64,000 bases of DNA from positions 3,782,001-3,846,000 of the forward strand of contig CM035359.1 in assembly GCA_020137815.1 (NCBI GenBank). The letters are read 5' to 3'. Under the pieces are notes generated by a model. The model ran no database searches. It was given only the letters and a program-made list of their open reading frames with translations, and was not told the origin of the DNA. Origin of the DNA: Hormiphora californensis. Lineage: Eukaryota > Animalia > Ctenophora. Below are positions 2,777-35,902 of the stretch, piece after piece; positions within the stretch are counted from its first letter, which is position 1; the number at the start of each line of letters is the position of its first letter. Position numbers and translations under genes: made by a program.

Positions 2777-2814
2777 TATGTACTATACTGTACATAATAA
2801 TACACTCTTTTTAG

Positions 2815-5800
2815 AGAGCGACCACTTTTTAATAAAACGAAAAGATACGACTAACTTGAATTGCTACTATGGTGCGGATGCAAAGACCAAGTACAGTACC
2901 ACGGCATCAACAACATGTGGTAGTGATGGCCTTGGGTCAACTGACTCTTATGATGTTTACAAGTTCTCGTGCAGTGAGTTTTTATTAAACATATTAAGCC
3001 ACATGATAATACACGTGTTTGGATATTTTAGGGTATTCGACATACCTTACTTTCGTTAATTAAGCTCGCATATTTCAAGAAACTTTTAAATAAGAAACTT
3101 TTTTCTAGGAAACTACAGGTGTAAGCAATCCAAAAACAAAAAGAATTTCTCCTTTATCAAGAAACTAAACAAGTTAGGGGTGTTCTATTTTGTTGTGGTG
3201 TCTCTGAATTGCGTGATTTACATTTGAAAAGTTTCTTATAAAAAAGTTTCTTACTAAAGCGTTTCTTAAAAAACGAGAGTAAGGTATTATATGTTACTCG
3301 CCTGTAAAGCATTATGCTAACAGTTAATCAGGTGTTTTCTGTTCCGCAGCTTGTTACGGTGTGAACTACGATGCTAACGCTCAAAAGTGCTACTTTCTTC
3401 GCGGACCCCCATATAAGGCAATGTTTGTGGCGAACATGGCATCAGCATACATTCGATGGTGAGCAAACAGAACGATGATCGTGCCCCGATATTGCAAACC
3501 CCTGTAATTGTTTAGGCAATTTTTTGCAGCATGAGTGATTTTTTAGCAGCCCAACATGTAACATCTTGCCAGCGCCCATGTCGCACGTGCCAATGCACCA
3601 CGCGCAACAGGCGTTCACAACTGAACGCCTGTTAATTTGAAGAACCAACCAAACTTTTCAGTGTGATTCAGTTTGGATCTTCGAAGCAATTGTTTCGAAG
3701 ATCCTGGTGTGATCGCGCCCTAATAGAGCCACACACACCTTTTTAATTTCAGGTGTTATGGGGAAATAGAGAATGTGGCAGCTCTAGGGGAGGCGACGAG
3801 CTCCAAATATACCCACAGTGGTGCTCCATCACGCATTATAGACCAATATCCCAATGGAGTTTGGTCCGCAGGTAAAATCAAAAATGTTATATTCTTTTCT
3901 TCTCTTCTTTCGTTTATATACCATGCAGAACTATCCAGTAACCATGGCAATTATCCAGTAACCATGGCAATTATCTTGCAGGGACTACGACCCATACGGT
4001 GGCGGATTCAGCCCGAAAGATTTGGATAAATATCGATTTTCCCGAGCTAGTGACAGTTTACTCCTTCACAATCATGCACCGGTATTCTTGTTGTACCTAC
4101 AGGAACAAAGGCGTCCAGGTACAATATTACATCCCTTTGTTGTCGTCCAGGTACATGATACAATCTGCAATCCTTCATTCGTTGTCTTTGATCAATCCGG
4201 GGGGAAATCTCATCGCGATATGTAGCGGTTTGGGTTTCACACCGCTCCCTATGACCTTGGTAGAATGTTGGCAACCGACCAACATATAATAATAATTGGG
4301 CTATAAATATTGTTACTCTGACAGATATCATTCGGAACGACAGTGATTGCCACCACACAAACAAAAACCACGTGGCATGTGTACGAGTTTGAAGAGGGGA
4401 AGGAGGCAGGGAGTGTGTATCTGGAACAAGTGGAACAAACTGTTAGTATCATAGTGTCAGTTGGGATATATTGTTATGTTCTAACCCTCCTTTACATTTG
4501 TAAAGAAGGGGCGCGCAAAACAGAGTCTAGCTAGGCAAGGGATGTATTGAAATAAATATATTATGATAAACAGAGAAAAATGCTCATATATATCCCCATT
4601 TAATCACATCCAATATATTCTAGGTGCTAAACCTTGCCGAGATTTTCGTAATGGGGGTGTTCTGGACCCAGAAGATCAAGTTTTACGGGACTAAGAAAGA
4701 GGTGACCAAGGAGGACAGTGGTCAGGCGTTCTATCTGCAGATCGAGTCGGGAGAAAACCAGTTTAATTCGGATGCTGCAGGCATAGTTATTTTAGGTCAG
4801 TTTATCTAATGATGAGAAGTTCATTGACACCAAAGAACTCTGTGATACTATACTATATATTTTTACATTTGAGTTATCCACTGTCAGGCCAATGTTCTCA
4901 CGCACTCATGCCAATGCTCTGACAGGTTGCCCACGTACGCTTTCCCCTACAATAATTGTCTTCCTATTGCATATCAGATATATCTTTGGGGGAACCGGAC
5001 AACTTTGGAAAAGATCGAAAACTCGAGGCGCTCAATGGCACTTCCTGGGCAATCACATGTCGTCTGGACGGGGCAGCGGCATCTGCCATTTCACCCATCA
5101 AACTCTTCTTCGACAATAAGGACACAAGTAAGAGATTTAGTAACGAAATAACCCCTCCCTTACCAGCTCTTTCAAGGGGGTTATTTCGTTACCAAGTAAG
5201 AGACAAACGCCCCGGCCCCCGACCTTTTACTGCAGATTCACCAGGCACCCCAATTCACCAGGCAAATTGCAAAACCCTCCTCCCCCCCCCCCCAAGCATC
5301 CCTGTTGACTGATATTATTTCAGAGTTAATGGGCTAAACCGTATTGCAGTGGTACGGTAACCGCGTCGTTTTTAGCAGGGTCCTTTTGTTGATTTTGTTT
5401 TATATTCTTTTGGTGGTCTGTGTGTGTGTGTGTGTGGCAGTGTTTTGTGACCTGTTGTATTAACTCTCTATGTTGTAGGATGTACTGAAGATGGCATTTT
5501 AGCCGAAAGGCCTTTACACCTGACACCTCGTCGTTTTCTTAAGCCCTACCCCAATCCCCTATTTGCTGTGTAACACCATGCTGAGGGCGGGAGGAGACGA
5601 CTAGGTTCAGTCCAACACTCGTCGGGGGAGCTGCATCTCGTTCCAAACACAAATGTTATCTACCACTGTCTTTATCAGAGGGGAAAGGGAACAGCGATTA
5701 TACCAGTTTTGGGGCCCCTGAGTGTAGTGTGGACGTTTTAACATTTGAGTGATGATACGAGAGGTCACACAGCTAGCTAGAAAGGTTGCCCAGAGGTCCC

Positions 5801-8800
5801 TTCTGGTATCTTCATTGGATCCTAGCTTACTCCAATCGAGCATACTCCCATCCTTGTGGCCCAGGGTCGGTAGATCTTTTGCCTATGAAGACTTAGCCGA
5901 GAAATGCAGTGCCATCCTCCTGGAAGCCCGGCGAAAAATCATCCTACACTGCTAAACACCCGGACCTGCATATCCCATCCAGGAACCACCCTGATTTTAC
6001 ACACCCAGGACTGGACGACGTTAGGACTCGTTTGTTGGGATATGTGAAAAATCTTCAGGGCATACCGGCAAAGCCGAATATGACTAATGCGGAACGCTGT
6101 GGGAAGAATTGGCTGCTGAAGAAATTGAAAGAAGAAGTTCTGTTCATAACGAAGGCGGATAAGGGAGGAGCAACCCTTATTCTCGACTATGACGTAGTTT
6201 TGGGAACCGTTGAAGCCGCCTTGAGGGATGAAAGTGTATTTCAGAAGCTAGAGGTACCAGTCGAGGTCCATATGGCTAGGACAACGGCCCTAATCAAGGA
6301 TACTGTAAGAGCAGAGAACGCTGCAGGAAGGTTGGAGAACCTCGACAAAAAACTCATCACTGGTCTCAACCACCAGGACAATATGGTAACCTCCCCGGTA
6401 TTCAGAGCGATGACCCCTTATGTCTACCCGCTCTTCAAAATTCACAAGTTGAGTAAGGAGGACATCGAGGCTAAGGTGACGCCGCCGACTAGATTGGTAC
6501 ATGCTACTAAGATGGGGCCTTTTTACAGATTAGAAAAATGGTTGGCTCCCGCTCTTACGGAAATTAGTAGGCTCTACTGTGAGCAGGAGGGTGGGCGGAC
6601 TCTAGTGCTAACGGACTCTTTATCTAAACTCAAGGCGGACTCTATATCTAAAACCGGACTCTTTATCTACAGTTAGACTTTGAAAAAAGTTTAGATAAAG
6701 AGTCCGCCCAGTTTAGACTTTTTAGATATAGAGTCCGCCCTGTGTAGACTTTTTAGACATAGAGTCCCCTGGTACATTTTGGCGCCAAATCCCCCAACCC
6801 GGACTCTATGTCTAAATTCCTAAACCAACCCAAAACCTAACCCTAACCATAACCCTAACCCTAACCTCGAACCCAAATAATGGCCCTAACACTTCTCAAT
6901 TAGTATAGAGGTACAGCAAACTCTCGTTTCCGGCCTAACGGCCGAAATCTCGAGTTCGCCGAGAATGGCGGACTCTATGTCTAATTTAGATTTATGTAGA
7001 TATAGAGTCCGCTCTTTGTAGACTTTTTAGATAAAGAGTCCACCCTGTTTAGACTTTTTAGAGATAGAGTCCTCCTAGAGTTTAGACTTATTTGGACTCT
7101 TTATCTAAATCTAAATTTAGATATAGAGTCCACTGTAGACTTAGAGTGTAGCACTAGAGTCCGCCCACCGAGCAGGAGTTCCTGTTAGATTCGGACGACC
7201 TTCTCGAACAGCTTAGGAGTTTGAATATGACATCTTACTCAGGGATGAGGCTATTCACTCTAGATGTGATAGCCTTGTACCCCAGTATAGACCCGAACCT
7301 GGCCCTGGAAGCTTTGGACGATGCTTTAAGGAACTGCAGAACACCTCTGGATGTAGCAACTACTGTACGTAATCTCACAGCTCTGATCCTGAAGGAATCA
7401 TTTGTCACATTCAGGGGAACGGTCTACAAAGGAGTGAAGGGGATCCCGACGGGGAATTGTATATCCCGGCAGGTGGCAGACATAACGCTGCACTACCTGC
7501 TGTTCTTCAAGCTACCAAGGGCGATACCCACACAGGCGAACTTCTGGAAAAGATTCATTGACGATGTGTTCGGGTTTTGGCAGGGCACCGAGAGGTCTTT
7601 CAAGATTTTTGTTGACCATCTTAACTCCTTGGCCGGTCCTCTTGGAATTAAATTTGGAGACTATCAAGTTGGCCACACGGTGAACTTTTTGGATATGGTT
7701 TTGTCAGTATCATCATCAGGGGTCTCCCATACCCTGTACAGGAAGGAGACCGATGCAAGACTATATCTGAAAACTGATAGTTTTCACCCGGAACACGTGT
7801 TCCGTTCCGTGGTACTGTCTCAAATGATCCGCATTATCAACAGGAACTCCAATCCTTCCCCCTTAAAAAGAAATTTGGACGAACTGCGTGAGGATCTCAT
7901 GAGAAGTGGTCACTCCAAGGAAGTTTTGGATGAGTTGGAACCATTGGCTAAGCGGCGGGCTACGGGGATTGAGGAGGTAAATAGGAGGGAACCGGAGAAC
8001 GGTGTGACGCTGGTATACAGTGTCAAATATTATGCGGAGGTAGAGGATCTAAGAGCGCTGATAAGGGATTGTCAGGGGAGCATTGATTTGGTTACTGGTT
8101 ATCCTACTAGGGTGATAATGGCCTTGAAGAAGGGAGCTGCTATCGGTAATGAGGTGGTTCGGAACAGGAAGTTGAGCCTGAGTGAGGCACAGCCTACAAT
8201 CACCCCACAAAATCAACGGTGTAATGGAAAAGGCTGTAAGACCTGTCCCATCTTATTCGAAACCCCTCAGACAGTAGTAGTTAACGGCTCTTGTTTGAAA
8301 TTGGACTTAAGATTGACGTGCAAGTCATCAGGCGTCATCTATGTGGCTAATTGTGTAGTTTGTGGGGAATCCTACTTTGGACAAACCCACTCGGCATTAC
8401 ATATAAGGATGAACGGCCACCGCTCCAAGTTTAAAACTGACCAACTCGCGTTCGAACAAAGTGCCCTTTCATACCACTGTTTCCTCAAACATAGAGACAA
8501 AGACAATTTTAGTATTTCCTCTTTTAGGATTGGGATAGTAAAACGTGTGTCGGCCATGGAGTTAGATAGGTTTGAGGAATTTTTTATTGAATCGTTTGGG
8601 ACCAGAGTTAATGGGCTAAACCGTATTGCAGTGGTACGGTAACCGCGTCGTTTTTAGCAGGGTCCTTTTGTTGATTTTGTTTTATATTCTTTTGGTGGTC
8701 TGTGTGTGTGTGTGTGTGGCAGTGTTTTGTGACCTGTTGTATTAACTCTCTATGTTGTAGGATGTACTGAAGATGGCATTTTAGCCGAAAGGCCTTTACA

Positions 8801-11800
8801 CCTGACACCTCGTCGTTTTCTTAAGCCCTACCCCAATCCCCTATTCAGGTGGGGATGTTGCATATAAAATGAAGAATGAGGCAGATAAGAATTTGTGTGT
8901 TAAACCCAACAATGACCCAACATTTGATGGAGATATCCTGGTATTTGGCGACTGTAAAGGTACTATTATATGCGTAAAGTTGTAAAGGTATTGTAATTGC
9001 ATTATTCAATTGCTTAAAACACCCATTGCTTTTCACTGTTTCCAATGCCAACTGATATTACTGTTTGTGTGTGTTTCTGTGGGCAGCATCGTGTTCAGCG
9101 GGTCCAAATTAGTCGGTAAAAACCGAGATTTGTCCAATTTAAACAAATGGTAAGAAATTTTACTTTTCTGGGAGATCAACGGGGGACGTCCCTGGGAGAT
9201 CTCCGGAGGTGCAAGGGAGGCCGTAAGATTTGATTCGTCAATGATATTACTATTATCCTTGCTCGAACATAACAAATTACTATCACCCTTATTTCAGTTG
9301 TGAATGATAAGTTTTATCTAACCAACGAGACGAAGATACTCCATTCACAGACGGGATACTGTCTTGGGGTAAATTCCTATTTTTAATAAATTTAATGATA
9401 CACAATTATTATAAAACACCGCCCAGGCCAAATCAACAGGGCCAGAAAATTGAGGTTTTAACCAGTCATATGACTGGCACTGTTCGGGATCAGAGGGGTA
9501 TATACCATTGATTACATATTCCTGGCTCACTGAAAGCCCACTCACTGAAAACAACTCATTTAATTGTTGAATATAAGTGATTTCCTGTTCTCATTAAGGT
9601 ACAAGGAACGGTCGCTGAGGGGGCAAAGATCCAAATTTCGGAGGCGAACTGTTACGACACAGCCTGGTTCTCGACATGGGCCGTAGGGAAGGGAGTTATC
9701 TATTACAACACGGATGCAAAGAAGGCGTTTTGTATCACTGGTGGAGCGGTAGCACCCCTTGTCGGGCAAGTGGTAGGTGATCTCTCCTTTATTTTGTCGC
9801 AACAGTCGAACCCCGATTTACCGGATGTGTCCTCAATGTGCCCTCAATGTGTCCTCAATGTGTCCTCAATGTGTCCTCAATGTGTCCTCAATGTGTCCTC
9901 AATGTGTCCTCAATGTGTCCTCAAACGTTCCGTAGGCAGTATGTCATACTACCGCTAAGGGTAGATGGTTTTACCCGGTAAATCGGGGTCCGACTGTATA
10001 TCAAAAACTTATCACGGTGTAAATGTGCCGTGTAAGTCACGACAGTGTCACAACTCACACGACAGTGTCACAACAACACATACTCCAAACCCATTCCTAG
10101 AAAAACATATTCCAAACCGATTCCTAGAAAAACATATTCCAAACACCGATTCCTAGAAAAACATATATTCCGATTCCTGTTTTTTAGCTCCAACTGACGG
10201 CAGCTGCTACATGTGTCAAGACAGCATGGACGGACACCTCTAAATTCCAAGTAGCAAGTGTCGACCTGACAGCCCTGGAAACGACCCGGGCGAGCATCAC
10301 AACAGAGGAAACGGCCTACACGGACACAGTACATGCCATACCGGTCTTCACCAGTGCTACCGTCGGAAAGTACTATTGTGCTGTTATGTGTTCTGAGTCG
10401 GCACGTTGGGCGTCAACTACACAGGTGTATAGCATCGGTAAGTCAGATTAGAGAAGTTACATATGTTTATCGGTAAGTCAGATTATAGAAGTTTCACAGG
10501 TGTATCGAATCGGTAAGTCAGATTAGAAAACTAAGCTGGCTAATTGTTGCTAAACCATGGATTGCAACATTATTGTTGTCCCCAAAGGGTTAAACTCAAT
10601 TTCGTTTACTATTTCCATTAGTTGTCAGCACCCAACCGGAGGATAAGAAGGGAGTAACGCTAGGAACTGAGGCTCAACTTACAATCAAATTCACTGTAAG
10701 TTAACCAAACCTCAATTTTTCCCTAACAATTCATATAAAAAATCATGTTAAAGATTTAATTTTCTGTTACACAATCATTTTACAGGATAAGTATCGGATA
10801 ATTGTTTATGAGCCGCATGATATTATATATAATAGTAATCTGTAGAGATCGTGGTATCTCCTTCCGGCTGGGTCAACAGGGACGAAATGAAAATACGGTG
10901 GTTTATTAACCAGTATTAATTGATTAATAAACCACCATATTTTCATTTCGTCCCTGTTGACCCAGCCGGAAGGAGACACCATCTCTATACAGATTACTAT
11001 CATTTTATCAATCAAATCAAAGATTTAAGACCCTCCCTTTTTTATTGGCCCACGCAGTATATTCTTATTCTCAATCCCAGATACCAGGAACGATGGCAAG
11101 TAAGAGGTTTCCTACTGCAAAAGATGTGGATGTAATAATGGTGGAAGAAGAGGGAAAAGATCCAAAACCAAAAGTCGTCTCCACCAATAGCGTCTCAGTA
11201 AGTGCACTCTATAGGGTATCTTTAATTAATTTAGATCACATGCAAGTGTCACACAAACTCAGGAACACGAGACGTTATTCAGTTATTAAATATTCATTCG
11301 TACACTAAAGTAAAATCGATTTAACTGGAATCTCACCACCAAGAAATTATTGCGTCATTATCTTACACGGCGTCATACACATTTCTATTTGGAATTTCTA
11401 TCTGGAGTTTCTATTTGGAATTTCTATCTGGAAGAACCGCACGTGCAGATGCGCCGCGCCGCGGCTCAAATTCACGTGCGAGATTAAAGAGAGAGACACA
11501 CATTAACGTTATACGATTGTCTCTCACTCTCTCTGGAAAAACCGCACGTGCAGATGCGCCGCGCCGCGGCTCAAATTCACGTGCGTGTTATACAGATTCT
11601 GACCGAAAATACGAGCAATAAATTCCAGTTGGAAATGTGTATGACGAACTGTTACTACTGTAATTGATTGCATACTGATTGCACAATACTACTGCAATTG
11701 ATTTCATCCTGATTGCACAATACAACTGTAATACTGATTGCACAACACTACTGTAATACTGATTGTGCAATTATTGCAGGGCTCAGCATCCAGTGGGGAA

Positions 11801-14800
11801 CTCAGTGTGGAGGTCAGTTTCAAGATAACCGATGCGGAAGTTCAAAGCATGCAATACTACCGGATCAGGACTAACTTCACTAACATCGCTGGAAATGGAT
11901 CTTATATCGGCGATCCGACACTCATTGTTGCACAAAGTACATAAAGTGTACATATTATAATTATATTATACTGAACCTTGATTTATCGTACCTCGATTTA
12001 TTGTGCAAATGCACCCTTCGTTCTGGTAAATCGAGGATCCCGGTAAATCGGGGTCCGGCTGTATTTTCATGATCAAAACTTCCAAAAGTGCCATTTTTCA
12101 GGATCGAAACTTCCGAAAGTGCTATTTCTGGGCCTGATTGGTCTTAGTGCACCTGTTCTGTGCGAGGGATATACCGTCATCAAACCCTCATTGGCATGGT
12201 TACTTAAGGTACAAACTTTAATTCCTGAAATATTATACGGGTATGAAACTGTGAACCAGCTTATTGGGAAACAGTTGAGCACTTGAGCACAGGAGAGATA
12301 AACTTCTTCCACTTGCTGCAGGATCTAGGATTTGTCCCTAAAACCATTACCATATAATTACCATGACAACTGATTACCATGACAACCGATTACCATGACA
12401 ACTGATTACCATGACAACCGATTACCATGACAACTGATTACCATGACAACTGATTACCATGACAACCGATTACCATGACAACTGATTACCATGACAACTG
12501 ATTACCATGACAACTGATTACCATGACAACTGATTATCATGACAACTGATTATCATGACAACTGATTACCATGACAACTGATTACCATGACAACTGATTA
12601 CCATGACAAATTATTACCATGACAACTGATTACCATGACAACTGATTATTCAGGACGGGAAAGGAGATGAAATTGGAAAAGTGGCATCTACCGCGTGGGA
12701 TGCAGACAAAGCCACCGCAACCTTCAACCCAGCCGTCCCGAAGACAACAGTGGACAGTGTCGGGAATTACAAGTGTGTGATAAAATTCTCGAATGATGAA
12801 GTCATGTCAACTGAAGCTGCTTACCTCAAATTACTCTGTAAGCATACTCCATTTTTTTGTCAACCCCCAAAGTCGTGCGCAGAATTGTTTTGAGACTCAT
12901 AACTTCAAAGAGAGATGGTTAAAATTACTATAGAGAGCAAAAAATTTACTATAGAATATGACAGAGTTGGATCCGATATTACACAGACACAAAAACCAAA
13001 GACGACTAAAATGTATCCACTATTACACAGATATAGAAGGGGAGCCAGCTGTGGCGTTTGCCGGCCAGCGAGGGACAACAGTTACGGTAACGGCGTACGT
13101 CTCGTACCCAGAGGATGAGACGGGCAGTTTGGAGGTGGAGGAGCCTAAAATAGACTGGATGAAGGTAATTATAACAAGCTGCCAGGTGGTAGAGACCATG
13201 GTGGGTGGATAAAGGTATAATCATTCATACCAGCTTCTTTTCCATTTACTATGCTTTTTATTTTATCAGTATTTTCTATTTACCAGCTGGTTGTCGATAT
13301 ACCGCTTGGTAATGGTACTTAGAGTCCCTACATACACCACTTATATGACGTGTCGATTTCTCTTGCTACTGTGTTTAACATTTATGTTCTTCCACAGATA
13401 GATTACAAGGAAAATGGCACAGAAAATTTGGTTTCCGTGTCAACGTTTGATGGTATTTCATCGAGCGAGGGAACGAATGATGCGGAAGGCTTAAATTCTG
13501 GTCTTACTCGCACACTATTATCAACGTAAGAAATCATTTAAATATACGCTCTAAAATACTACATTTAAACACAACACCGACTGTTATTGGATCTTTTGGT
13601 GAAGACATTGCTTTTACCTTTTTTACTTCCACGTTCAATACAAATTATCACAAAACTAGATCATGACATAAATCAACTGAATTCTCTGATGCAGGCTAAC
13701 TGTGGATGCTGCAGAGAACGCCGACAAATTTAGGATGACAGTCACGTACCCTAAGTATCCGAACAACACCCTCATATCTACTAAAACAGCTTTGATTATT
13801 CTGGGTAAGTACTGAGTTAGTACTACTGCAGCTGTAATCATCGGGGTGCCAGCCGAACAATCGAATACATGGGACATGTATACTTTTTGCCCAAAATCTC
13901 AAACATGACTTTCGCGGTACAGCTCGATCCAATTAAAACATAATGTGTATAAAACTATTGCAGATGTGAATATGACTTCGGAAAGTGTCATGGGCGTCTC
14001 GGGAGGATCAGAGTTTGCTATAACGTGTGCCGCTTATGACTCTAAACAAGTGCTCGCGGTATGTTTGCCGCTCAATCTGTCCTTCCCCGAAATAGGATAT
14101 AAAACTTATCAAAATAAGAGACTTCCCAGAACAAGAGACTTCCTAAAATGAGAAGCTTCCTCATATATATTGTACATCTGAGAGGCGAGAGCTGCAGGAT
14201 TTACTATGGAGTTGGTGACATAGACATCTGGGGCGACCCCCACGGGGTCGCGCTAGGTGTCTATGTCACCAAACCTGGCGTGTGCGGGGGGTCGCACCAG
14301 GTGTCACCAAACTATATATAGAGTACATCTTCTTTTTAGTATACGTGGTATAAGGATGGTAAAGCGTATACTGGATCCGTGAAGCAGGGCGTGAAGTTTA
14401 ACACAGAGTTGTCACGAACAGAGATAGTCCTGGAATTCCTTTCGGTAGGCATAATCATGATGATAACTGTTTGTGTATATCTTATACTATAGTACTTTTC
14501 AGGCTACTTTAAATAGTGAAACAATCTAAAATATAATTGGTATACCTTTCAGTTGCCTAGCTAGACTGTGTTTCGCAAATGTAAAGGAGGGTTAGAACAT
14601 AACAACCTATTTCAGGCGACTAAGAGTGATGAGGGTTTCTATTTCTGTGGGGTCACGTTTGCTACGGAAGGAATTGAAATGTTGGCATCATCAGCAGCAG
14701 GGACAAAAATTACGCAGCTGATATTCATAAACTATTTAGATGGTTACCCTCCTCCATACACCTTCGTCACTCCGAGTATGTAGAATAATGTGCCCAATAT

Positions 14801-17800
14801 AACAGGCTGGACTATGGATGAATTATATGACTACATAAAAGTATACATAGTCATAATACATGTAGTAGGCAATTTTGCATTTGCGGGCATCGCACTATAG
14901 ACGCATTACCCACGTACTATAGACGCATTATAAACGCATTATAAACGCATTATAGACGCATTATAGACACACGCAATATAGACGCAATTTCGTAAGCAGC
15001 ACTATAGACGCAATATAGACGCATTATAACAGCAATATAAACGCATTTTTATAGACGCGACGCAGTATAGCCGCATTATAGGCGCACTACCCACCCCAAA
15101 ATCACCTTATAGACGCACTATAGACGCATTATAGACTGACTATAGCAGCACCATAAACGCTACATAGACCCATATAGACGCATGATAGAAGCATTATAGA
15201 CACAAATCGCTTTTTATAGACGCCGCGTCTATAAAAAACGTGCTTTTTAAAGAAGCACTTTAGACGTACTCCAGGCTACAGTGCGATATTTGAGGCGCAG
15301 TTGGGCGTTTTATAAACGCATTTTTGTCGCATATAAAAGGAAGCAGTACAGACGCATTATAGCCGCATGTGTGCGAAATCGATAAAGACGCAATATAGAC
15401 GCAAAATAAGAAGGAGAGGGAGAGAGAGGCGAGGGAGGGAGGGAGAGGGAAGGAGAGGGAGGGACTGAGGGAGGGGTACAGGGACAGAAACAGACGGATA
15501 AAGACCTGAGGCAGAAGGACAGAGTAAGATGGAAAGAGAGTAAGATGGAAAGATAGTGATATATAGGGACGGAGTGAGACATAAAAAGAGTGAGACAGAA
15601 AAAGACAGAGATGGAAACAAACGGACAGAGACAGACGGACGGACAAACACGCGCTTACTATCTCCCTCTCTGTCTCACTCTCTCTCTCTCCACTCTCCAT
15701 CTTAATCTCTCTCCATCTTACTCTGTCCGTCTGTCTCAGATCTGTGTCCATCTGTCTCTGTCTGATCTGTCTCTGTATCCCTCCCTCTTCCCCTCTCCTT
15801 CCCTCTCCCTCCCTCCCTCCCTCCCTCTAGTCTCTCTCCCTCTCCTTCTTATTAATTGCGTCTATATTGCGTCTTTATCGATTTCGCGCACATGCGTCTA
15901 TAATGCGTCTATAATGCGTCTATACTGCTTCCTTTTATATGCGACAAAAATGCGTTTATAGTTCGCCCAACTGCGCCTCAAATATGGCAGCGTGCGTCTG
16001 AGTACGTCTATAGTGCTTCTTAAAAAAGCACGTTTTTTATAGACGCGGCGTCTATAAAAAGCGATTTGCGTCTATAATGCTTCTATCATGCGTCTATATG
16101 GGTCTATGTAGCGTTTATGGTGCTGCTATAGTCAGTCTATAATGCGTCTATAGTGCGTATATAAGGTGATTTTGGGGTGGGTAGTGCGTCTATAATGCGG
16201 CTATACTGCGTCGCGTCTATAAAAATGCGTTTATATTGCTGTTATAATGCGTCTATATTGCGTCTATAGTGCTGCTTACGAAATTGCGTCTATAATGCGT
16301 GTGTCTATAATGCGTCTATAATGCGTTTATAATGCGTTTATAATGCGTCTATAGTACGTGGGTACTGCGTCTATAGTGCGATGCCCGCAAATGCAAAATT
16401 GCCCATGTAGTACATGTATTATGACTATGTATACTTTTATGTATTACATGACTATATATAATAATTTGTATCCGCTAGTGAAATGAACTGAATAGTATTT
16501 TTTAGATTTCAACGCTTCGATATCCGTCATTGCTCGGTTTCCGGAAGGACTCGATGAATCTGATAGCAATAACTTGACAGTCTCATGGACCGATTCAGTG
16601 GTAAGTGAATTAACGTACGTGTGTGAAGTGTTGTTTTATTCAAGGGTCACCACACACCAAAGTTAAAATTAAAATTAAAATTTTAATTTTAAACCCGCAC
16701 ACACCAGCAGCCGTTAAAATTTCTCTCCCCATTCTAAAAGTAACAATCTCACGCACGATTTTGACGGTCGCGTTGGATGATAAAATTTTAACACGCCGTT
16801 AAAATCGCGCGCGAGATTGTTACTTTTAGAATGGGGGAGAGAAATTTTAACGGCCGCTGGTGTGTGGGGGTTTAAAATCAAAATTTTAATTTTAATTTTA
16901 ACTTTGGTGTGTGGTGACCCTAACCCCTTTTTATTTTATTTTATAAAATAAAAGGGGGTAGCTTGGCAATTGGTGACATAGACACCTGGCGGGGGTCGCG
17001 CCAGGTGTCTATGTTACCAAGCTTGGCAAGTGAAGTGATGCTCTTGGTAATACTGCCACACGTTTTTAAGTGTCCCAGCTACTACTATAATATTATATAT
17101 ATTATATTATATGCCATGTCCCTGTAATTATGTTGATCCCGTATATTGACCATATTGAGATTACCCCACATATGGTTCATACTCGAATTGAAACACTTCC
17201 CCAGATATGTGAAATATATAATGTGTTTGAATAGCTCCGGGGGGGATCAACACTTAACTTTATGACACTCATGCCAGTTAGGGTGGGTGGGTGTACGAGG
17301 GGTCCGACAGTTAAGTTTTACACTTAACTGCCTAAAAATAGGGGGTCTAGGGGTGTTTATATGGTGAAAATTTAAATAACTGCGCCTAATGGCCGATTTT
17401 TTGAAGTTTTCAACCCCCTTTTTCGCGCGCTCGTTATTTTTTGTGCACCTATCACATGTGTGTGGCGAACATTTTTTTACGCATGCCACTCTAAGTGTCT
17501 CATACTAACCAATTCGGAATTCGGATCCGTTACCTAAAATGGTCTGTGTTGTTCTTAGTTGATGGCAGTTGATTTTAGACACAATATATAAGTCTCTCCG
17601 TGTCTTTCGTGCTATTTTTAGCTCCCTTTTAGCTAGATTTGGGGGGTGGGTCTACATTTTCAGATGTGACGGCAGTTAAATTTGGCACTTAAGTGCAAAA
17701 TATGTGGGGGGTGGTGGGTGTCAAAAATTTTTTGAAAATTTGGCAGTTATCGGCATGAGTATCATGCAGTTAAGTGTTGATCCCCCCCCCCCCCCCCGAT

Positions 17801-20800
17801 AGCTCTGCAATTTCGGGAGGTATAATTGCAATAAACATATTCCCAGGGAACAAGCTACACCGAGGAAGATTGGGAGTTCGATTACTATACCCACAACGGA
17901 GTTCGGTACATTAACGTTACCTTGACAACAAAACAACCAACTCCAGTCGTAGGTAATATATATTGACGGGGCATACAAGTCCCAATTGTTCACTATAAAA
18001 CTGTGCAGTAGGCAATATTATCATTACATAAAATTATCATTACATAATAGCTGCAATGCAGCCATGCTGCATACAATAACGCATTGAAAACCACGTCTGC
18101 ATGAACCGTACACCTTCGGAGGATCACCCCTTCCTTCATAATCATCATCTGGCCATCTCCAATTGCATGCAATATTTACACCACGCCGAAACTGTATAAC
18201 ACCAACAAAAAACACTATGAATATGTTTAATTCAGACACGCAATTTAAGGCAAAATTAACTTACCCAAATGTGGCTGGGAAAGGAACTCTCACATCTGGT
18301 ATATCGAAGATTAGACAAAGGTAAGAACTCTTTATCTAAATAAAAATCTCGCTGCTAAGTTATTAGGGGGTATGCATAAACCCGGATAGCGTGGATAATC
18401 CGGACTATCTGGATTATCCGAGTTTATGCATACCCCCTATCAATATTTATGCTCGGTAAATCGGAGTCCAACTAACAGTATATCTGTTTCACAATTATTC
18501 CTCTCATTTAGAACCGCTAGTATTGTGGAGCATGACATAGCGGAGAATGCGGATACTAGTAACTTTTACCCTGCCATACTGGGACAACAACTTCGCATCA
18601 CTTGCTCCTGGCTAACAAACAAGGCAGTCGAACCCTCTGACGTTCTGTAAGTCACTAATCAATTCGCAAATATATTTTACTATTATTGGTTCATTCCATT
18701 GACAGACTGAACGTGTTCGTTGGTGTACTACTCAAAGATTATTTCAATTAAAGAGAAACAACGATTTTGCAGTACTTAAATATTCAATTAAGAACAGGAG
18801 CTTTAAGCTGATCTATGTCAGTCGTCTTCAGCAATTTTTCATTTCTAGTTTCTACATTTAACAGGTGGATGTACGTGGAGAAGGATAGCTTTACACAAAT
18901 AAAAATTGACGAAGAAGTGGACGACGTGGCGTGCACAGTGAACTGTTCAGGGATTATTCAGGGGAGTGTGTTTAATCCGGACACGAACGATAAAACAAAG
19001 TGGTTAGTAAGGGTAGTTTGTTTAATCCGGACACTAACGATAAAACAAAGTGGTTAGTAAGGGGGAGTGTGTTTAATCCGGACACTAACGATAAAACAAA
19101 GTGGTTAGTATAAGGGGGAGTGTGTTTAATCCGGACACTAACGATAAAACAAAGTGGTTAGTAAGGGGGAGTGTGTTTAATCCGGACACTAACGATAAAA
19201 CAAAGTGGTTAGTAAGGGGGAGTGTGTTTAACCCGGACACTGACGATAAAACAAAATGGTTAGTATAAGGGGGAGTTTTGAAGTTGTCAGTTGTCACCCC
19301 CAATCTGGCTTTAGGTGTACACCATATAACACATACATATTGAAACTACCCCCATGCAAGGTTACCGTTATCGTTATATTAGATCGACAGATCGTTACGA
19401 ATGTTGCTCTTATCTAAGCAGAAAACCAAGTCTGTTTCTTCACAGTGGGGCTCTATAAATTGGGAAGTTCGGAAATGCATCGAAAAAAGATATATCTGCG
19501 ACTTGTGAGAGCAAATTGTGAGAGTATGACTGCTAATAAACCCTTTCCTATAAATACAGGTACAATGTGATGACTATCAAATCACTGACGGATGACTACC
19601 ATACGAAACAGGTGAAGTGCAATGTGACATATTCTACCGAGGATGGGTCTTCCGTGATATCGGGAGAATTCGCTAACATATACGTGCTCAAGGTATATAA
19701 CTCAAATTAGTTTGAGTGTTTAATTTAACCAAATAGCTAAGTAGGATGTTCTATCTATGCTCTCTCTCTCTCTATCTCTGTTTTATTTTCAGATAACGAG
19801 TCAGCCCAACGAGTACGGATTCCAAAGTAAGAACCAGGAGATCTCTGGGGTGGCGGTTAGCTACCAAAACATGCAAAGCACCATCCTGAAACAGTCGGTG
19901 ATCTGGTGTAAGAGTAAAGACGAGAAGGACACCTACCTGACGGCGGACTGCACAACACCCACATCAGACTTCGAATCGACCTATTTGAAGACGCAGCTGA
20001 AAGTCAAGATGACAGTGGAGTTGTCAGGGTATTATTGGTGGGCTGTGGTAAATTATACTACCCTGTTGGAAACACATATCTCTAATATGAGAAGCCTGGT
20101 GTCCAATAAGAGCTACGTCATTGTAACCAGTAAGTATAATGGCTGATCACTTTTTTCATCACTTTTTTCCATCTTTTTTTTTCCATCTCTTATCATCTCT
20201 TATCATCTCGTATCATCTCTTATCATCATCTTTTTATCATCTCTCATACTTAGTCTTTCCTGAAATATGTTTTTTTCTTCAATATTTCTTGGCTGCATAT
20301 ATATGTTTGGGTTACCAATCAATATTTCTCTAGGTCTGTGCTCATCGACGGAACCTCAGAAGTTGTCAACATTTCCGGTGCCAGAGACCGTGGACCTCAG
20401 TAAAATCGTGGTGCAAGTTGGCGACTTGTTCTACTTTTTCGGCACCACCAATGTCACGTTTGCCGAAACGGAATCTTATTTTAGCATCAAGTGTAGCTCA
20501 TCGGGAAGCCTCATTGATGTAAATATACAGTCGGACGTCGGACCCCGATTTACCAGGATGCTCGGGGGCATAATTATATCTAACAATTATTTATTTAATT
20601 AATTAATTAATGGTCCCTGCATCTGACAGGTGATGGTTGATGGAAAGAAGTCGAATATGGAGCTGACACACTACAAGGATGACTGCAACGGAACTGCCGA
20701 ACCAGAGGACGCGTACGATATCGCATACTCCACCTCAGGCATCTCTGAACTTATCATGGTGGCTACAGAGAAAGACTTTACAACCTGGACTAAAGGCAGC

Positions 20801-21442
20801 AAGAAGAGCAACAAAATAAATGTGTTCTATACGATCAAGACGCCCGAGATTGTTAACGGATCAAACACTATTCCAGCGGTATGTATACTGTTCAATTGTA
20901 ACACGCAGTATAAAACTGCAGTAATCAGTTCTGAGATTCAACAAACCGGTGGTCGTGGTAAAAAATATTTCGGAAACTGCAATCCTAAACTCTAGGATAC
21001 TCTAAACAGCACAAAACATGTTTGCGGGTTTTATTTTATAAATCCTACTAAACCTCCCTTCTCTCTCTCCCAGACATACAAATCTGACTATCTAAAGCTG
21101 ACGGGGATCACTCCTTACAAAACAGCCGGAGTGGAGCAAATGTGGACCATGCGAGGGGTCATCATTTGCCCCACTGAGCGGGGTCAACAGATTCTAGACA
21201 ACAGTGTGGAGGAGCCAGTTAACGGGGCTGGAGCAAAGTACTATGTTAGTACCCGGGGAATAACAGGTAAGGATGTTACCATGGTTACTGCATGAATCAG
21301 ATATTAGCAGCATAATTATGCATAACTCACTGATCGAGCCATTGCATATATCATGGCAGTTCTAATCCTGTGTTTCATGGTAACTGCATCGTCATTATAT
21401 TGCAATGGCTTTCTTTATTATCTTTGGTCTGGCATCTGGTAG
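2815..21442 (+). CDS. Large multi-exon Ig-superfamily/lectin cell-surface protein (5' end outside window): PAN/WSC-like, F-type lectin, ricin-B lectin, ~9 Ig-like domains, possible GPI/TM tail
   Basis: Phase-compatible GT-AG exons without stops: 2815-2973, 3332(or 3350)-3458, 3753-3871, 3982-4118, 4325-4441, 4624-4795, 4978-5127, 8849-8959, 9298-9368, 9599-9772, 10188-10437, 10622-10695, 11081-11197, 11780-11936, 12102-12208, 12654-12837, 13031-13164, 13398-13525, 13695-13804, 13964-14058, 14340-14444, 14616-14775, 16506-16600, 17847-17952, 18236-18320, 18512-18646, 18865-19002, 19560-19692, 19793-20129, 20334-20518, 20630-20878, 21074-21266; tentative last exon 21360-21442. Ig motifs: AITC..YTWYKDG..DEGFYFC, VLC..LAWLLKDG..VGNYKC, VGKYYC. 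Confidence 0.88.
3753..4656 (+). other. F-type lectin (fucolectin) domain, four exons of the Ig/lectin gene
   Basis: Spliced translation NVAALGEATSS..APSRIID..GTTTHT..WINIDF..VYSFTIMHRYSCCTYRNKG..VLNLAEIFVMG follows the F-type lectin pattern (NVA, S..D, HT, W.vDl, R.xCC..R, L.l.Ev.V.G). Confidence 0.8.
5477..5521 (+). ncRNA. Minimal type I hammerhead ribozyme in 5' pLTR
   Basis: AGGAUGUA-CUGAAGA-UGGC AUUUUA GCC-GAAA-GGCC-UU-UACACCU: CUGANGA and GAAA..UH core, stem I UGUA/UACA, stem II GGC/GCC, palindromic stem III AAGGCCUU as in PLE minimal hammerheads. Confidence 0.85.
5909..8642 (+). CDS. PLE reverse transcriptase-GIY-YIG endonuclease, interrupted by a MITE at 6590-7169; N-terminus disrupted
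   Basis: Motifs KADKG, LDVIALYPSI, KGIPTG, RFIDD, NFLD, LYRK, Cys linker CNGKGCKTC, VIYVANCVVCGESYFGQT, terminal GLN. Removing the MITE and one TSD restores the frame (..YCEQEFLLDSDDLL..). Confidence 0.93.
6590..7169. mobile_element. Non-autonomous MULE-type TIR element inserted in the PLE ORF
   Basis: 21-bp TIR GGTGGGCGGACTCTAGTGCTA, 9-bp TSD GAGCAGGAG (6581-6589, 7170-7178), subterminal GGACTCT.TATCTAAA repeats, internal AACCCT tract. Confidence 0.9.
8759..8803 (+). ncRNA. Minimal type I hammerhead ribozyme in 3' pLTR
   Basis: Identical to 5477-5521. Confidence 0.85.
8849..10250 (+). other. Ricin-B (R-type) beta-trefoil lectin domain of the Ig/lectin gene
   Basis: Three repeats, each with a Cys pair: NLCVKP..DGDILVFGDC..KF / TGYCLG..EGAKIQISEANC..STW / AFCITG..GQVLQLTAAATC..KF. 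Confidence 0.72.
9802..9997. mobile_element. Tc1/pogo-like MITE (CAGTCGGACCCCGATTTA family) with internal 11-bp tandem repeat
   Basis: Inverted ends CAGTCGAACCCCGATTTACCGG / CCGGTAAATCGGGGTCCGACTG(TA). Partial relatives near 12040, 20528, 36344, 41930-42189. Confidence 0.7.
10831..11000. repeat. ~170-bp imperfect palindrome (MITE-like)
   Basis: ATAGTAATCTGTA...TACAGATTACTAT arms with a near-symmetric interior. Confidence 0.8.
12357..12649. repeat. 16-bp intronic minisatellite (CCATGACAACTGATTA)n
   Basis: About 18 copies directly abutting the acceptor at 12652-12653. Confidence 0.93.
14868..16403. mobile_element. Foldback/MULE-type non-autonomous element, almost wholly palindromic
   Basis: TIR begins GGCAATTTTGCATTTGCGGGCATCGC; long inverted arms built of TATAGACGCA repeats; 9-bp TSD CATGTAGTA (14859-14867, 16404-16412). 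Confidence 0.9.
16644..16920. mobile_element. PIF/Harbinger-like palindromic MITE (GGGTCACCACACACC)
   Basis: Long TIRs GGG...CCC with TNA-like flanks; same family at 22452-22722 and 28959-29229. Confidence 0.78.
17238..17798. mobile_element. Non-autonomous TIR element with 7-bp TSD (superfamily unassigned)
   Basis: TIR C(G)nATCAACACTTAACT; ATAGCTC duplicated at 17231-17237 and 17799-17805. Confidence 0.8.
18960..19275 (+). repeat. ~51-bp tandem repeat of an exon end plus its splice donor
   Basis: About 6 copies of GGGGAGTGTGTTTAATCCGGACACTAACGATAAAACAAAGTG|GTTAGTAA; the first copy is the coding end of exon 18865-19002. Confidence 0.9.
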
Positions 21443-21671
21443 GCCAGGTAAGTCGGAAGAACCTGTCCGTTTGTCTCATGAGCGCTCATGAGTGTATCAT
21501 GAGTGTGTCATGAGTGTATCATAAGCGCTCATGAGACGTTTTTCGGTGTTTCAACGTCTCATGAGTGTATCATGAGTGTATCATGAGTGTATCATGAGTG
21601 TGTCATGAGCGCTCAAGAGACGCTGCTCATGAGACATATGTCTCATTCCATCTCTGTTTCAATTTCTCATA

Positions 21672-22276
21672 AAGTGCGATTTTTAATATAGTCAAATTTT
21701 TAATAAAGTGAACCGCTTGCGCGCGAAATGGTTTTCCCACGCACCGTGGGAAAGTTTTTTTCCCGATTTTTTCGATCATATCTCTGGCTCCTGATAACAC
21801 GGTCGCTTGTAGTGGGAAAACGGTAATGAAAAACGAAAGATACAGTAAGACGACGCGCAACCGTGACCAATCAGGGCGCTAGTACGTGCTGACACATGAA
21901 CTTTTTGCCGCGCATTATGCACCGTGCGCGTCTCCTTACTGTATTTTCATTACGGTAATTTGACTACAAGCAGCACTGTAAGATAAAGACTTCATCTTGG
22001 TTGCGTTAGAAAGAGAAAAACTGTATCTTTCCAATGCGACCAAAAAAGTCTCTATCTTATCAAGAACCGGATTTAGCACGCGCAAAAACTTTTTGCGCAC
22101 AGTGTGCGGAAAGTTTTTGCGTGCAAGCGGTTCGCTTTATTAAAAATCGGACTTTAAAGCGAACCGGGGGCGCACAAATCAGAGCATTTCACACACATCA
22201 CACGTCACGCACTACCAATTTCAATTCAAAACTTCATTTTGCGCGCCCCCCGTTCGCTTTCTTAAAAATCGGACTT
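21672..22276. mobile_element. AAGT(C/G)-TIR, TA-target MITE nested in a CTCATGAG-repeat element
   Basis: TA|AAGTGCGATTTTTAA...TTAAAAATCGGACTT|TA; flanked by TCATGAG arrays (21475-22358) and degenerate TTAGGG tracts. Confidence 0.65.
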
Positions 22277-22451
22277 TAAGCGCTCATGAGATGTTTTGAC
22301 CTGCATATGCTTATGAGTGTATCATGAGACATGTCTCATGAGACATGTCTCATGAGACGTTAGGTTTATGGTTAGGGGTAGGTTTAGGGTTGGGCTTGGG
22401 TTAGGGCTATCCATTAGGCCTAGGGCACCGTAGGGGTAGGGTTAGGGTTGA

Positions 22452-22722
22452 GGGTCACCACACACCAAAGTTAAAATTAAAATTTTGATTTTAAACCCGC
22501 ACACACCAGCGGCCGTTAAAATTTCTCTCCCCATTCTAAAAGTAACAATCTCACGCACGATTTTGACGGTCGCGTTGGATGACAAATTTTTAAAACACCG
22601 TTAAAATCGTGTGCGAGATTGTTACTTTTAGAATGGGGGAGAGAAATTTTAACGGCCGCTGGTGTGTGCGGGTTTAAAATCAAAATTTTAATTTTAATTT
22701 TAACTTTGGTGTGTGGTGACCC
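22452..22722. mobile_element. Harbinger-like MITE, copy 2
   Basis: Near-identical to 16644-16920. Confidence 0.78.
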
Positions 22723-22974
22723 TTACCCATAGGCTTAAACACCTAGCCCTACCCTCTACGGGTCCCTAGACCTAAGGAATAGCTCTAACCCTAGGCTAGG
22801 GTTGGGCTAGGATCCCTAGCACAACCCTAATTAATTAATTAATTTTGACTATTCCCACTTTTTGTAGATCATTTTTTATGCATGCGTTTTTTTTCTCTGT
22901 TTTCTCTGTATTCATAATTATGTATAATTATTAGGGTGTGCACTGTGCTAAGTTAATTTTTGTCGACTTGGTTG

Positions 22975-23078
22975 ATATCAAACTATGAACAATTCTTTAC
23001 AACATCCTAAAAACATAATTGAGGTATACCTCAATTATGTTTTTAGGATGTTGTAAAGAATTGTTCATAGTTTGATAT
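22975..23078. repeat. 104-bp perfect spacerless palindrome
   Basis: Centred on GAGGTA|TACCTC; repeated in the duplicate near 29482-29585. Confidence 0.92.
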
Positions 23079-23421
23079 ATAGTGGGGAAACAGTCGTGTC
23101 TGAACCTCAGGTCCAGTGCACAGCTATTTTCCACTGAGACCTAAGATCTCCGGTTTCAGTGACGGGAAATAGCCGTCACTGACACCTGAGTTCTCAAAAT
23201 GATCGTAGGAGCTCTAGGGGTAAGCTAAAATTGGAAAATTGGATTTGATTTATGAGTTGGGACAAATAGCACATCACGGTGTGCCTGAACAAAGTTTAAC
23301 CTCGGATGAAAAATGGTTCATCAGAGATTTTCAAACATAACAAAAGTAAACGATAAATACGCTTTAAATCGTTTTTCGTAAAAAGTGTAGGGTGAGCCGA
23401 GCCGTCAGCACGGACTGTTAA

Positions 23422-25675
23422 CCCTTTGACAGCGAGAAGGATTGGCTCGATAGAATTGTCTAATTTTTCGTTTATAAGTAGATGTTATCAACACAAAACG
23501 CCTCGAAAAGGAAATTTGTAATTCCGACATGTAGTTTTTGCTGGGCCCACTGTAGCATATATGATACTATCGCCCGTAAGGGAATTCTAGTAACAAATCT
23601 AAATTGTACAAGTTTGTGGGTGTTATGGCATAAATTCATGCATTCATGAGGTTTGTAGCTACAAGTTCTACATTCGTGAACGGTTTTTACCAGGAAAAGG
23701 ACCCAAATTAGAGATTTGTATCATATATGATACTATCGTCCAAAGGGTAAATTCTCCTAAAACATACATAATTCGGGCTAGAAAAGGAGCTAAGAGACAA
23801 ATGGGGGCACTAAAATGTGTAGAATCATCGCATTAGTGGGGGTAGAGCACATATTTAGGTCGCTATCTGGACCCCTAATTGAGATAATTGCATAATTAGC
23901 TAATTATCTGTCCCGCGCGTGCTAATTATTCGTGAAACTTTGCTCTGGGAAGGAGTTATGAGACAAATGGGGGCACTAAAATGTGTAGAATCATTACATT
24001 AGTGGGGGTAGATCACATATTTAGGTCGCTATCTGGATCCATAATTGAGATAATTGGATAATTAGCTAATTAGTTGCCCTGGAGCGCTAATAAATGAGAC
24101 TTTGTGGAGTATTCAAGACAAGTAGGGGCACTAAAATGTGTAAAATCATCGCCTTAGTGGAGGTAGAGCACATAGCTGAGTTTCTATTCCAACTCCTAAA
24201 TGAGATAATTGGATAATTAGCTAATTGACGGTTGCACACCGTCCACTTTTCACTAAATCCCGTGGTTTCTAGGTAATCCTGAGCTCTTTTGTTCAATCTA
24301 AGGATCTTCTGACATCCCCTAATATCCCTAAACCCCTATAACCGTGTGTCCAAACAATAAATATGGGAAACTGTAGTACATTAGAGGTTGAACGTGTTGT
24401 AGGAGCAATAGGATATACAAATTCTATAGGATTGTAGTTGGATCTTGGATGTATGAGAGGTCTAGGATGGAGCAAGAGGGTTCTAAAGAGCTGAAGGCAG
24501 TGTCTAGGGTTGTATCGAGTGCTATACTATTGTGTAAAACGAGTCATAGGTGATACAAATGGGGTAAGGGGTTGTCAGAAGATCCTTAGATTGAACAAAA
24601 GAGCTCAGGATTACCTAGAAACCACGGGATTTGGTGAAAAGTGGACGGTGTGCAACCGTCAATTAGCTAATTATCCAATTATCTCAATTAGGAGTGGGAA
24701 TAGAAACTCAGCTATGTGCTCTAACCCCGCTAAGGCGATGATTTTACACATTTTAGTGCCCTCACTTGTCTTGTATACTCCGCCTAGTCTCATTTATTAC
24801 CGCTCCAGGGCAACTAATTAGCTAACTATCCAATTATCTCAATTATGGATCTAGATAGCGACCTAAAATGTGCTCTACCCCCACTAATTTGATGATTCTA
24901 CACATTTTAGTGCCCCCATTTGTCTCATAACTCCTTCCCAGAGCAAAGTTTCATGAATAATTAGCATGCACGGGACAGATAATTAGCTAATTATCCAATT
25001 ATCTCAATTAGGGATCCAGATAGCGACCTAAATATGTGCTCTACCCCCACTAATGCGATGATTCTACACATTTTAGTGCCCTGATTTGTCTCTTAGCTCC
25101 TTTTCTAGCCCGAATTATGTATGTTTTAGGAGAATTTACCCTTAGGACGATAGTATCATATATGATACAAATCTCTAATTTGGGTTCTTTTCCTGGTAAA
25201 AACCGTTCACGATTGTAGAACTTGTAGCTACATACCACATGAAAGCATAAATTTATGCCATAGCACCCACAAACTTGTACAATTTAGATTTGTTACTAGA
25301 ATTCCCTTACGGGCGATAGTATCATATATGATACGGCGCCTTAAATGTTAATAACTCATTCAATTTTCAATATTTTTTGATGCGGCTTTTTGCATTCGGT
25401 CGGTTATGACGAGCACTTTTATTCCTTCAAAGGATTAGTTGTGCCCCCAAAAAATAAAAAAATGAGAAATGTTTTTAAAAAAAGGCCGAAATTAGCCTCC
25501 TTAGAAGGGCTATAAAATTTTTTTCTTGATTTTCTGAGCTGATCTGGACGTGGTTTTAGGTTCATAATCCCTAAAACTAGCTTGTGACAAAATATGGGCC
25601 ACCTAGATAAAACATAAGGACTTCCAGGCCGCCTAGAATAGACTGTAGCATATATGCTCTGTCGCCGTCAAAGGG
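23422..25675. mobile_element. Non-autonomous piggyBac element
   Basis: TTAA TSD (23418-23421, 25676-25679), TIR CCCTTTGAC[A/G]GCGA, ~750-bp internal inverted repeats; empty TTAA site in the duplicate at 29925-29928. Confidence 0.93.
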
Positions 25676-29500: not shown

Positions 29501-30787
29501 TCTTTACAACATCCTAAAAACATAATTGAGGTATACCTCAATTATGTTTTTAGGATGTTGTAAAGAATTGTTCATAGTTTGATATATAGTGGGGAAACAG
29601 TCGTGTCTGAACCTCAGGTCCAGTGCACAGCTATTTTCCACTGAGACCTAAGATCTCCGGTTTCAGTGACGGGAAATAGCCGTCACTGACACCTGAGTTC
29701 TCAAAATGATCGTAGGAGCTCTAGGGGTAAGCTAAAATTGGAAAATTGGATTTGATTTATGAGTTGGGACAAATAGCACATCACGGTGTGCCTGAACAAA
29801 GTTTAACCTCGGATGAAAAATGGTTCATCAGAGATTTTCAAACATAACAAAAGTAAACGATAAATACGCTTTAAATCGTTTTTCGTAAAAAGTGTAGGGT
29901 GAGCCGAGCCGTCAGCACGGACTGTTAAATGCTAGGCGCTACAAGGGTAACTAGACCTCCCCTTGAGCGTGCTCGACAACCTACGGACTGGGGTTTCCAG
30001 CCCAATAAACCTTGCTGGTCTAGCAGCGTGCAAGACCCATATCCTTGCACCGATCAGTATCCTTAGGATTTGTGACTGGCCGAGATCCAACCATACGTGA
30101 AGCTCCTATTGCCGATACTAAGTGTCCCCACTTATAGAGAGTTGCCAATGTGGCTAGAAGTGAGACTGGAGGCACTTTGTATCCCAAACTAAGCATAAGG
30201 AGTTTCCTTATCCGATACCTAGTGTTCCCCTAGAGTGAGCATTGCCAATATGGCAAGAAGAGATGATATAGAGAACCCCTCGAGAATATTGGGGAACACC
30301 GAGTAGAGTTGTACTAATTGAAATGGGTCGGTTAAAAGGTTGTAACTAATGTGCCCCTAATTTAACTACAATCATATATACAATAGATAATACAACATAA
30401 ATTGCTAATAACTCAACTCCCTCAAACAACTCTTTCTCCTCCAATATATAAGAGAGATGGTTCCCCACCATCTCCCGAACTACATATTCTACTCCCCTCA
30501 AAACAGAACACTCTTCTCTCTTCTCTCCTCTCTCGCTCTCTGGTCACCTCTTTCTCAGATCACGCGATCCACGCCAGCTTAGGCTGACGTGGCACCTTCT
30601 CCTCTCGGCACGTCGCACAATCCCCTGTACGCGGCTTCTCGCTATTCCTACTCATCTAAAACAGTGACCCAAATTCTTATCTTCTAATATCTCTCCATAA
30701 CTATTGTAACAAATAAATAATAACGAAGTAAAACAACTACGTATTTGGTACGCTACAATTGTTTCATCGCAACCCTTACGGGAAACG
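26536..30787 (+). repeat. Tandem duplicate of ~19990-26538, lacking the piggyBac
   Basis: Near-identical sequence and ORFs at offset 6492/6493; indel-rich junction at 26536-26630. Confidence 0.93.
26826..27935 (+). pseudogene. Duplicated 3' exons of the Ig/lectin gene, frameshifted
   Basis: Copies of exons 20334-21442; extra T in GTTGATTGGAAAG (~27133) versus GTTGATGGAAAG; upstream exon scrambled. May be an assembly artefact. Confidence 0.7.

Positions 30788-32131: not shown

Positions 32132-35902
<3,771 letters not shown>

Follow-up and report, generated by a model that had tools for sequence, protein, structure and literature searches.

A candidate split-Ig stalk protein from a ctenophore with a predicted trefoil-like insert

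Animal proteins that combine immunoglobulin (Ig) domains with lectins are described as beads in series. A gene in a stretch of 64,000 nucleotides (nt) from the ctenophore Hormiphora californensis (GenBank assembly GCA_020137815.1, contig CM035359.1, positions 3,782,001 to 3,846,000; hereafter the window) raises the question whether a whole domain of lectin-type fold could also sit inside an Ig domain. We propose that its product is a cell-surface or secreted protein, more than 1,500 residues long and built as a rod of Ig-like domains. One of these domains would be interrupted behind strand C, letting a predicted beta-trefoil stand out from the side of the stalk and act as a binding head. Both Ig halves would together form a single sandwich, closed by a disulfide bond between Cys291 and Cys496, and the same mode of display may apply to an F5/8-type head located further up. 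Such a sideways geometry is possible because the N and C ends of a trefoil lie side by side. The most likely job of such a protein would be to attach to microbes, prey or neighbouring cells, or to recognise them, by way of ligands on their surfaces. We put the probability of this explanation as a whole, with splicing, fold, disulfide, anchoring and function all predicted from the DNA, at roughly 55%, while one nested Ig-trefoil unit, taken as geometry alone, is likely.

The gene model comprises 33 exons on the plus strand (2815-21266), each of them preceded by AG and followed by GT (33/33; boundaries placed by hand and joined by script). The spliced frame runs through 1,524 codons without a stop, compared with 50-107 stops in the other five frames; since the boundaries were picked by eye so as to preserve the frame, this count is partly given by construction and is strong but not independent proof. 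Exons have a GC content of 47% and short introns one of 36%, and splice sites scored by leave-one-out reach medians of 6.5 bits for acceptors and 6.3 bits for donors, with a decoy acceptor median of -3.2. Least secure are micro-exon 4103-4118, with a length of 16 nt, and a small number of splice sites, the lowest acceptor scoring 1.3 bits in the same leave-one-out procedure. Overall, this looks like a genuine intron-rich gene of animal type with predicted splicing, and its product carries 17 N-glycosylation sequons. RNA run X1 aligned only to repeats within 2800-11250 and 16480-21460, covered no exon and gives no evidence either way. The key motifs are in place: exon 4978-5127 encodes WAITC...LFFDNKDT, exon 10188-10437 encodes TVGKYYCAV, and exon 4624-4795 encodes the end of an F-type-like domain followed by VTKEDSGQAFYLQIE. 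The gene and the order of its parts (Table 1) agree in this respect with the original prediction, which had been made from the letters of the window.

An exon-by-exon Pfam scan brought 0/32 exons to the cut-off, so small family profiles were built instead from members encoded in bacterial genomes and from a skate Ig-superfamily protein (P0004), and the spliced model was scored against these. Joined together, aa 264-313 and aa 455-516 scored 11.2 bits against a profile of six unsplit Ig domains of the same protein (the own profile), in a co-linear alignment to profile positions 11-95 of 112, with 0/300 shuffles reaching this value; the halves alone (1.8 and 7.6 bits) and the native sequence including the insert (6.3 bits) all stayed below it. 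Scored against own half-profiles, aa 264-313 matched the first half (0/500 shuffles) and not the second (426/500); in a leave-one-out comparison it even outscored every one of the first halves taken from the six unsplit domains. Similarly, aa 455-516 matched the second half (20/500 shuffles, compared with 152/500 for the first half) as well as the outside Ig profile (0/500). In the Ig profile, Cys291 aligns with the B-strand position and Cys496 with the F-strand position; the C strand of the split domain reads IKLFF and lacks the canonical tryptophan. Further along the stalk, the outside Ig profile clearly recognises two Ig units, at 21.4 and 9.3 bits, the others staying at 2.9 bits or below. 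AlphaFold models of single exons were unusable (mean pLDDT, the predicted local distance difference test, 37.5 for exon 12 and 41.6 for exon 30). The split of one Ig domain around a ricin-B-like insert is moderately supported by these comparisons.

The insert itself comprises 141 residues with six evenly spaced cysteines. A ricin-B profile built from 14 sequences gave 9.3 bits for aa 314-454 (shuffle maximum 8.7), the best of 15 segments, with the next at 2.4, and the start of its envelope (aa 314-438) coincides with the start of the insert. The middle lobe matched a ricin lobe profile (0/500 shuffles; 79/500 and 259/500 for the other lobes), and lobes 2 and 3 are alike (7/2000 shuffles). In its approximately 140 residues, its three putative lobes with paired cysteines and its weak profile match with a significant middle lobe, the insert resembles ricin-B/CBM13 (carbohydrate-binding module 13) beta-trefoil lectin domains (PF00652). 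It differs from them by the lack of QxW/QxF and of the sugar-binding Asp pattern and by its predicted nesting in an Ig domain, whereas ricin-B domains stand in series. The ricin-B-like identity originally predicted here is weakly supported.

Ahead of the predicted split, aa ~90-217 gave 23.1 bits (0/500 shuffles) on a profile derived from F5_F8_type_C_2 and made up of 18 bacterial PF22633 domains, the fold itself being placed at aa ~101-207. This likeness to F-type lectins and F5/8 type C (discoidin) domains supports an F5/8 (F-type) fold and bears out the predicted F-type lectin fold at the profile level. F-type lectins are defined by the fucose motif HX24RXDX4(R/K), and deviant members may have altered specificity or no sugar binding, according to the available part of the describing text (PMC5712786). 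Compared with the lectins covered there, aa ~90-217 do not carry the fucose triad motif and keep the cation motif h2DGx only in part, with IIDQ at the aligned place. A PAN-like identity had also been predicted for aa 1-90, where we take the pattern C-x-G-V-N-Y-x6-C-Y-F-L to be PAN-like; the profile test, using a narrow set of 15 myxobacterial PAN_4 domains, did not support it, as 313/500 shuffles reached the score.

The F5/8-type domain could likewise be looped out of an Ig domain. In line with the original prediction, a stretch resembling an orphan Ig second half (aa 218-263) follows its end directly in the same exon, although the Ig identity of this stretch is weak (7/300, 10/500, 8/300 and 40/500 shuffles in four tests) and its F-strand cysteine is missing. 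A half-profile search within aa 1-263 found no matching Ig first half, which fits a first half located upstream of the window without showing one. Such a second split, with the whole cassette looped out of an Ig domain that begins upstream of the window, is weakly supported. As an additional observation, the first exon (2815-2850) opens with a short strand ending in K-D-T, which looks by eye like the one closing the putative first half of the split domain (5095-5127); it might represent strand C of an upstream host Ig domain.

Several points weigh against the proposed explanation. The domain profiles yield low scores throughout (6-23 bits), the limits of the domains were drawn by eye, and the number of tests was large. 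The presumptive first half, aa 264-313, fails against the outside Ig profile alone (46/500 shuffles). Within the insert, pairwise comparison shows lobe 1 to be significantly similar to neither of the other two lobes, and lobe 3 fails to match the ricin lobe profile; QxW/QxF occurs nowhere in aa 314-454, while 19/23 reference lobes contain QxW, and none of its lobes has the Asp just after the first Cys that is found in 10/23 reference lobes. The fucose motif is absent from the F5/8-type domain even in the relaxed form H-x(20-30)-R-x-[DE]-x4-[RK], a result that depends on micro-exon 4103-4118 being right. Moreover, the protein is open at its N end, as the gene begins upstream of the window and a signal peptide would lie outside it, and the candidate membrane anchor is ambiguous: six acceptors were tried for the C terminus, that at 21360 among them, and none is strong. 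The upstream copy of a duplicated acceptor (5324) leads to a stop after 4 codons, so the allele may be impaired. Finally, on a profile combining own and outside Ig domains, the contiguous stretch aa 405-516 scores 15.3 bits and the rejoined halves score 13.6 bits.

This last result speaks for an arrangement with no nesting, in which degenerate domains follow each other in series, aa ~420-516 form one complete Ig domain with lobe 3 supplying the A'-B-C strands, and the earlier pieces are partial or circularly permuted. The missing ricin match of lobe 3 fits this arrangement, and as an Ig first half lobe 3 is reached by 26/500 shuffles; the orphan half (aa 218-263) directly precedes the first half (aa 264-313), as it would in a permuted domain. 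On the own profile, however, the order is reversed, with 6.8 bits for the contiguous stretch, and the higher combined score is put down to the G-x-x-L-x-L motif of lobe 3, which mimics an Ig B strand. A series of domains would also leave a two-lobed trefoil and an unpaired B-strand Cys291, next to an orphan half that offers no F-strand cysteine. We favour the split parse because lobe 3 repeats lobe 2, itself a match to ricin lobes, and because the contiguous parse leaves only two trefoil lobes and this lone cysteine, and we consider domains in plain series unlikely. Lobe 3 and the Ig second half are encoded in one exon, the internal acceptors of which are weak (at most 1.5 bits). The trefoil predicted within one Ig domain is the best parse of the sequence, with both cysteines at canonical positions, while the contiguous Ig parse continues to compete with it.

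A further question concerns what the heads would bind. As both are devoid of canonical sugar contacts, they may bind a lipid, a protein or some non-canonical glycan, and with the fucose motif, QxW/QxF and the lobe Asp all absent, the heads are to be seen as lectin folds and not as demonstrated lectins. The glycan binding originally envisaged is weakened by the same absences and appears doubtful. F5/8-type domains often bind phospholipid or protein, and the nested architecture could be right with heads that are no lectins, but structural or protein- or lipid-binding modules of a matrix or adhesion protein. The motif losses and the changed or lost sugar binding considered for deviant F-type domains (available text of PMC5712786) would suit this option. 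On the other side, trefoils with altered QxW motifs are still classed as ricin-B lectin-like (PMC9224602), and the projected domains of bacterial split-domain adhesins do bind ligand (PMC12077191; PMC10865825), as far as the accessible portions of these papers go. We regard non-lectin heads as distinctly improbable in this strict form, which overlaps with our preferred explanation of a nested Ig-trefoil stalk protein and differs from it in the ligand only.

The joint between the split Ig first half and the insert is occupied by a retroelement in intron 8, which, judged by its motifs, presumably is of the Penelope type. It contains an open frame of 494 codons (7158-8639) and an upstream piece of 259 codons (5897-6673), and is broken at ~6590-7170 by a small inverted-repeat element. 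A weak reverse transcriptase (RT) match was obtained (TIGR04416, E 0.012), and no Pfam match at 0.01. The element duplicates the acceptor of exon 9, with 7.6 bits for the upstream copy (5324). A wrong splice model at the key joints, with the trefoil exons skipped or belonging to a separate nested gene, or with the copy disabled by the retroelement, is very improbable: the strong duplicated acceptor leading to a stop and the in-frame AG sites 10252 and 10255 at the trefoil/Ig border, where the homologous fragment P0001 (see below) begins, could point to it, but the phases fit at all joints with no stop, these AG sites are no better than 21-38% of decoys, the downstream acceptor (8849) is the stronger one with 8.4 bits, and a nested gene would leave unexplained that the trefoil end and the Ig half form one open exon. 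Apart from these joints, a tandem repeat of ~50 bp at 18970-19270 contains about six copies of the 3' end of exon 28 with its donor, and could offer alternative donors.

Is there any precedent for such a design? The closest likeness known to us lies in RTX adhesins, bacterial proteins with RTX repeats and type I secretion, such as FrhA of Vibrio cholerae, Lap of Aeromonas hydrophila and MpIBP of Marinomonas, in which a long Ig-like stalk contains some discontinuous domains and domains of sugar-binding fold are projected off axis (PMC12077191; PMC10865825; this and the following comparisons refer to the available parts of the two texts). In contrast to these, the ctenophore gene is an intron-rich animal gene with domains of disulfide type, as in the Ig superfamily (IgSF). 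The split site differs as well, being near the middle of the domain after strand C, whereas FrhA and the second split domain of AhLap carry the insert after the first strand, and the cargo is trefoil-like here and PA14-like or another carbohydrate-binding module in the adhesins. A sequence relationship was not found, with no RTX family match among the 32 exons, so the likeness is one of analogy. By this comparison, the gene is likely an animal variant of a design already described in bacterial adhesins.

Among animals, invertebrate extracellular proteins also combine Ig domains with glycan-recognition folds. FREPs and VCBPs are Ig-lectin mosaics with tandem domains and other lectin folds. The crayfish protein PcLec3 joins Ig and C-type lectin domains, in tandem and not nested in the available description (PMC4944128). 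In a literature search covering mainly open papers, we found no animal Ig domain with a nested lectin, and the word "ricin" has 0 occurrences in the main text of a study on ctenophore immune genes (PMC11797021). The original statement that this architecture was not known from described proteins accordingly stands for animals and falls for bacteria, given the split Ig-like display of RTX adhesins in the sources above. If true, a natural IgSF domain with a complete domain of 140 residues lodged in its C-D region would mean that animals reached the RTX-adhesin solution for placing heads off the stalk, and protein engineering would gain a natural site for insertions. Genes of this kind escape annotation, as reflected by the Pfam scan reported above. 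A bolder extension would be that an animal lineage independently evolved split-Ig display, with IgSF domains opened after strand C to take up interchangeable cargo (a beta-trefoil, or a PAN-like and F5/8 pair) on a giant membrane-anchored stalk, as a modular recognition family missed by standard scans; this is tentative and rather unlikely in its full extent. The finding loses value should the heads prove to bind nothing, or should the contiguous parse hold.

Searches for relatives contributed little to the notion of a family. Word-based searches with exons 12, 30 and 11 against proteins of up to 2000 aa returned 0/86, 0/30 and 0/23 homologous candidates. A HMMER search with exon 12 yielded four matches (P0001-P0004), of which P0001, a fragment of 61 aa with 58% identity to the Ig second half, is the sole true homolog found. 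It shows that the predicted Ig second half is conserved elsewhere, and is uninformative on architecture. The skate protein P0004 matched the same half with an E-value of 5e-4, and P0002 and P0003 were treated as chance repeats. Metagenome scans found no homolog, two loci proving to be unrelated open reading frames (ORFs) of bacterial type; the ESM Atlas contained no usable match, and a PDB sequence search with exon 12 returned only a nanobody (E 3.1). With this one fragment as the only homologous sequence, the predicted receptor family is barely supported.

Table 1. Predicted parts of the gene and associated features, in window coordinates
Feature	Exons and residues	Position	Strand	Basis
Cysteine-rich module, PAN/apple-like by eye only	Exons 1-2, aa 1-88	2815..3458	+	PAN_4 test negative
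F5/8 type C / F-type-lectin fold	Exons 3-7 (3753-3871, 3982-4081, 4103-4118, 4325-4441, start of 4624-4795), aa ~90-217	3753..4656	+	23.1 bits
Possible orphan Ig second half, E-F-G strands, no F-strand Cys	aa 218-263	4657..4795	+	Weak shuffle tests
Putative split Ig first half, strands A-B-C, Cys291, ending at phase-1 intron	Exon 8, aa 264-313	4978..5127	+	Own Ig half-profile
Penelope-like retroelement, at exon 9 acceptor	Intron 8	5324..8848	+	Direct repeats at both ends; RT-like and GIY-YIG-like motifs
Ricin-B-like (beta-trefoil-like) insert, three-lobed, six-cysteine	Exons 9-11 (8849-8959, 9298-9368, 9599-9772) and start of exon 12, aa 314-454	8849..10253	+	Weak profile match
Putative split Ig second half, strands D-G, Cys496	Rest of exon 12, aa 455-516	10254..10437	+	Outside Ig profile, skate match, P0001
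Stalk of about seven further Ig-like domains in series	Exons 13-30, aa 517-1315	10622..20129	+	Alignment by eye
C-terminal region	Exons 31-33, aa 1316-1524	20334..21266	+	No Pfam match at cut-off; ESM Atlas: no named match at >=0.9
Possible last exon, hydrophobic tail then stop at 21442, membrane anchor candidate		21360..21442	+	Hydropathy 1.84 over 19 aa; acceptor 2.3 bits

Apart from the gene parts, the window is rich in repeats. A direct duplication (20087-23421 and 26578-29928, 99.4% identical) carries the last three exons of the gene and is either recent or an assembly artefact. A long tandem satellite of 33 bp occupies 1-1500 and 2069-2777, immediately before exon 1 of the gene model. 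Large inverted-repeat elements of foldback or MITE (miniature inverted-repeat transposable element) type lie at 14832-16443, 23552-25334 and 33944-35408, their arms of ~750 bp being 91-98% identical. Further downstream, a transposon-like ORF is present in near-identical copies at 52371-53672 and 54216-55229 (both minus strand) and 58004-59218 (plus strand), the first of which matches DUF1258 below the cut-off (E 1.4e-6). Multi-exon pieces of an SLC6 or sodium:neurotransmitter symporter gene were observed at ~36770-38230 (minus strand), with copies at ~39140-41070 and 63234-64000 that share near-identical segments; one exon matches the Pfam family SNF with an E-value of 7e-7.

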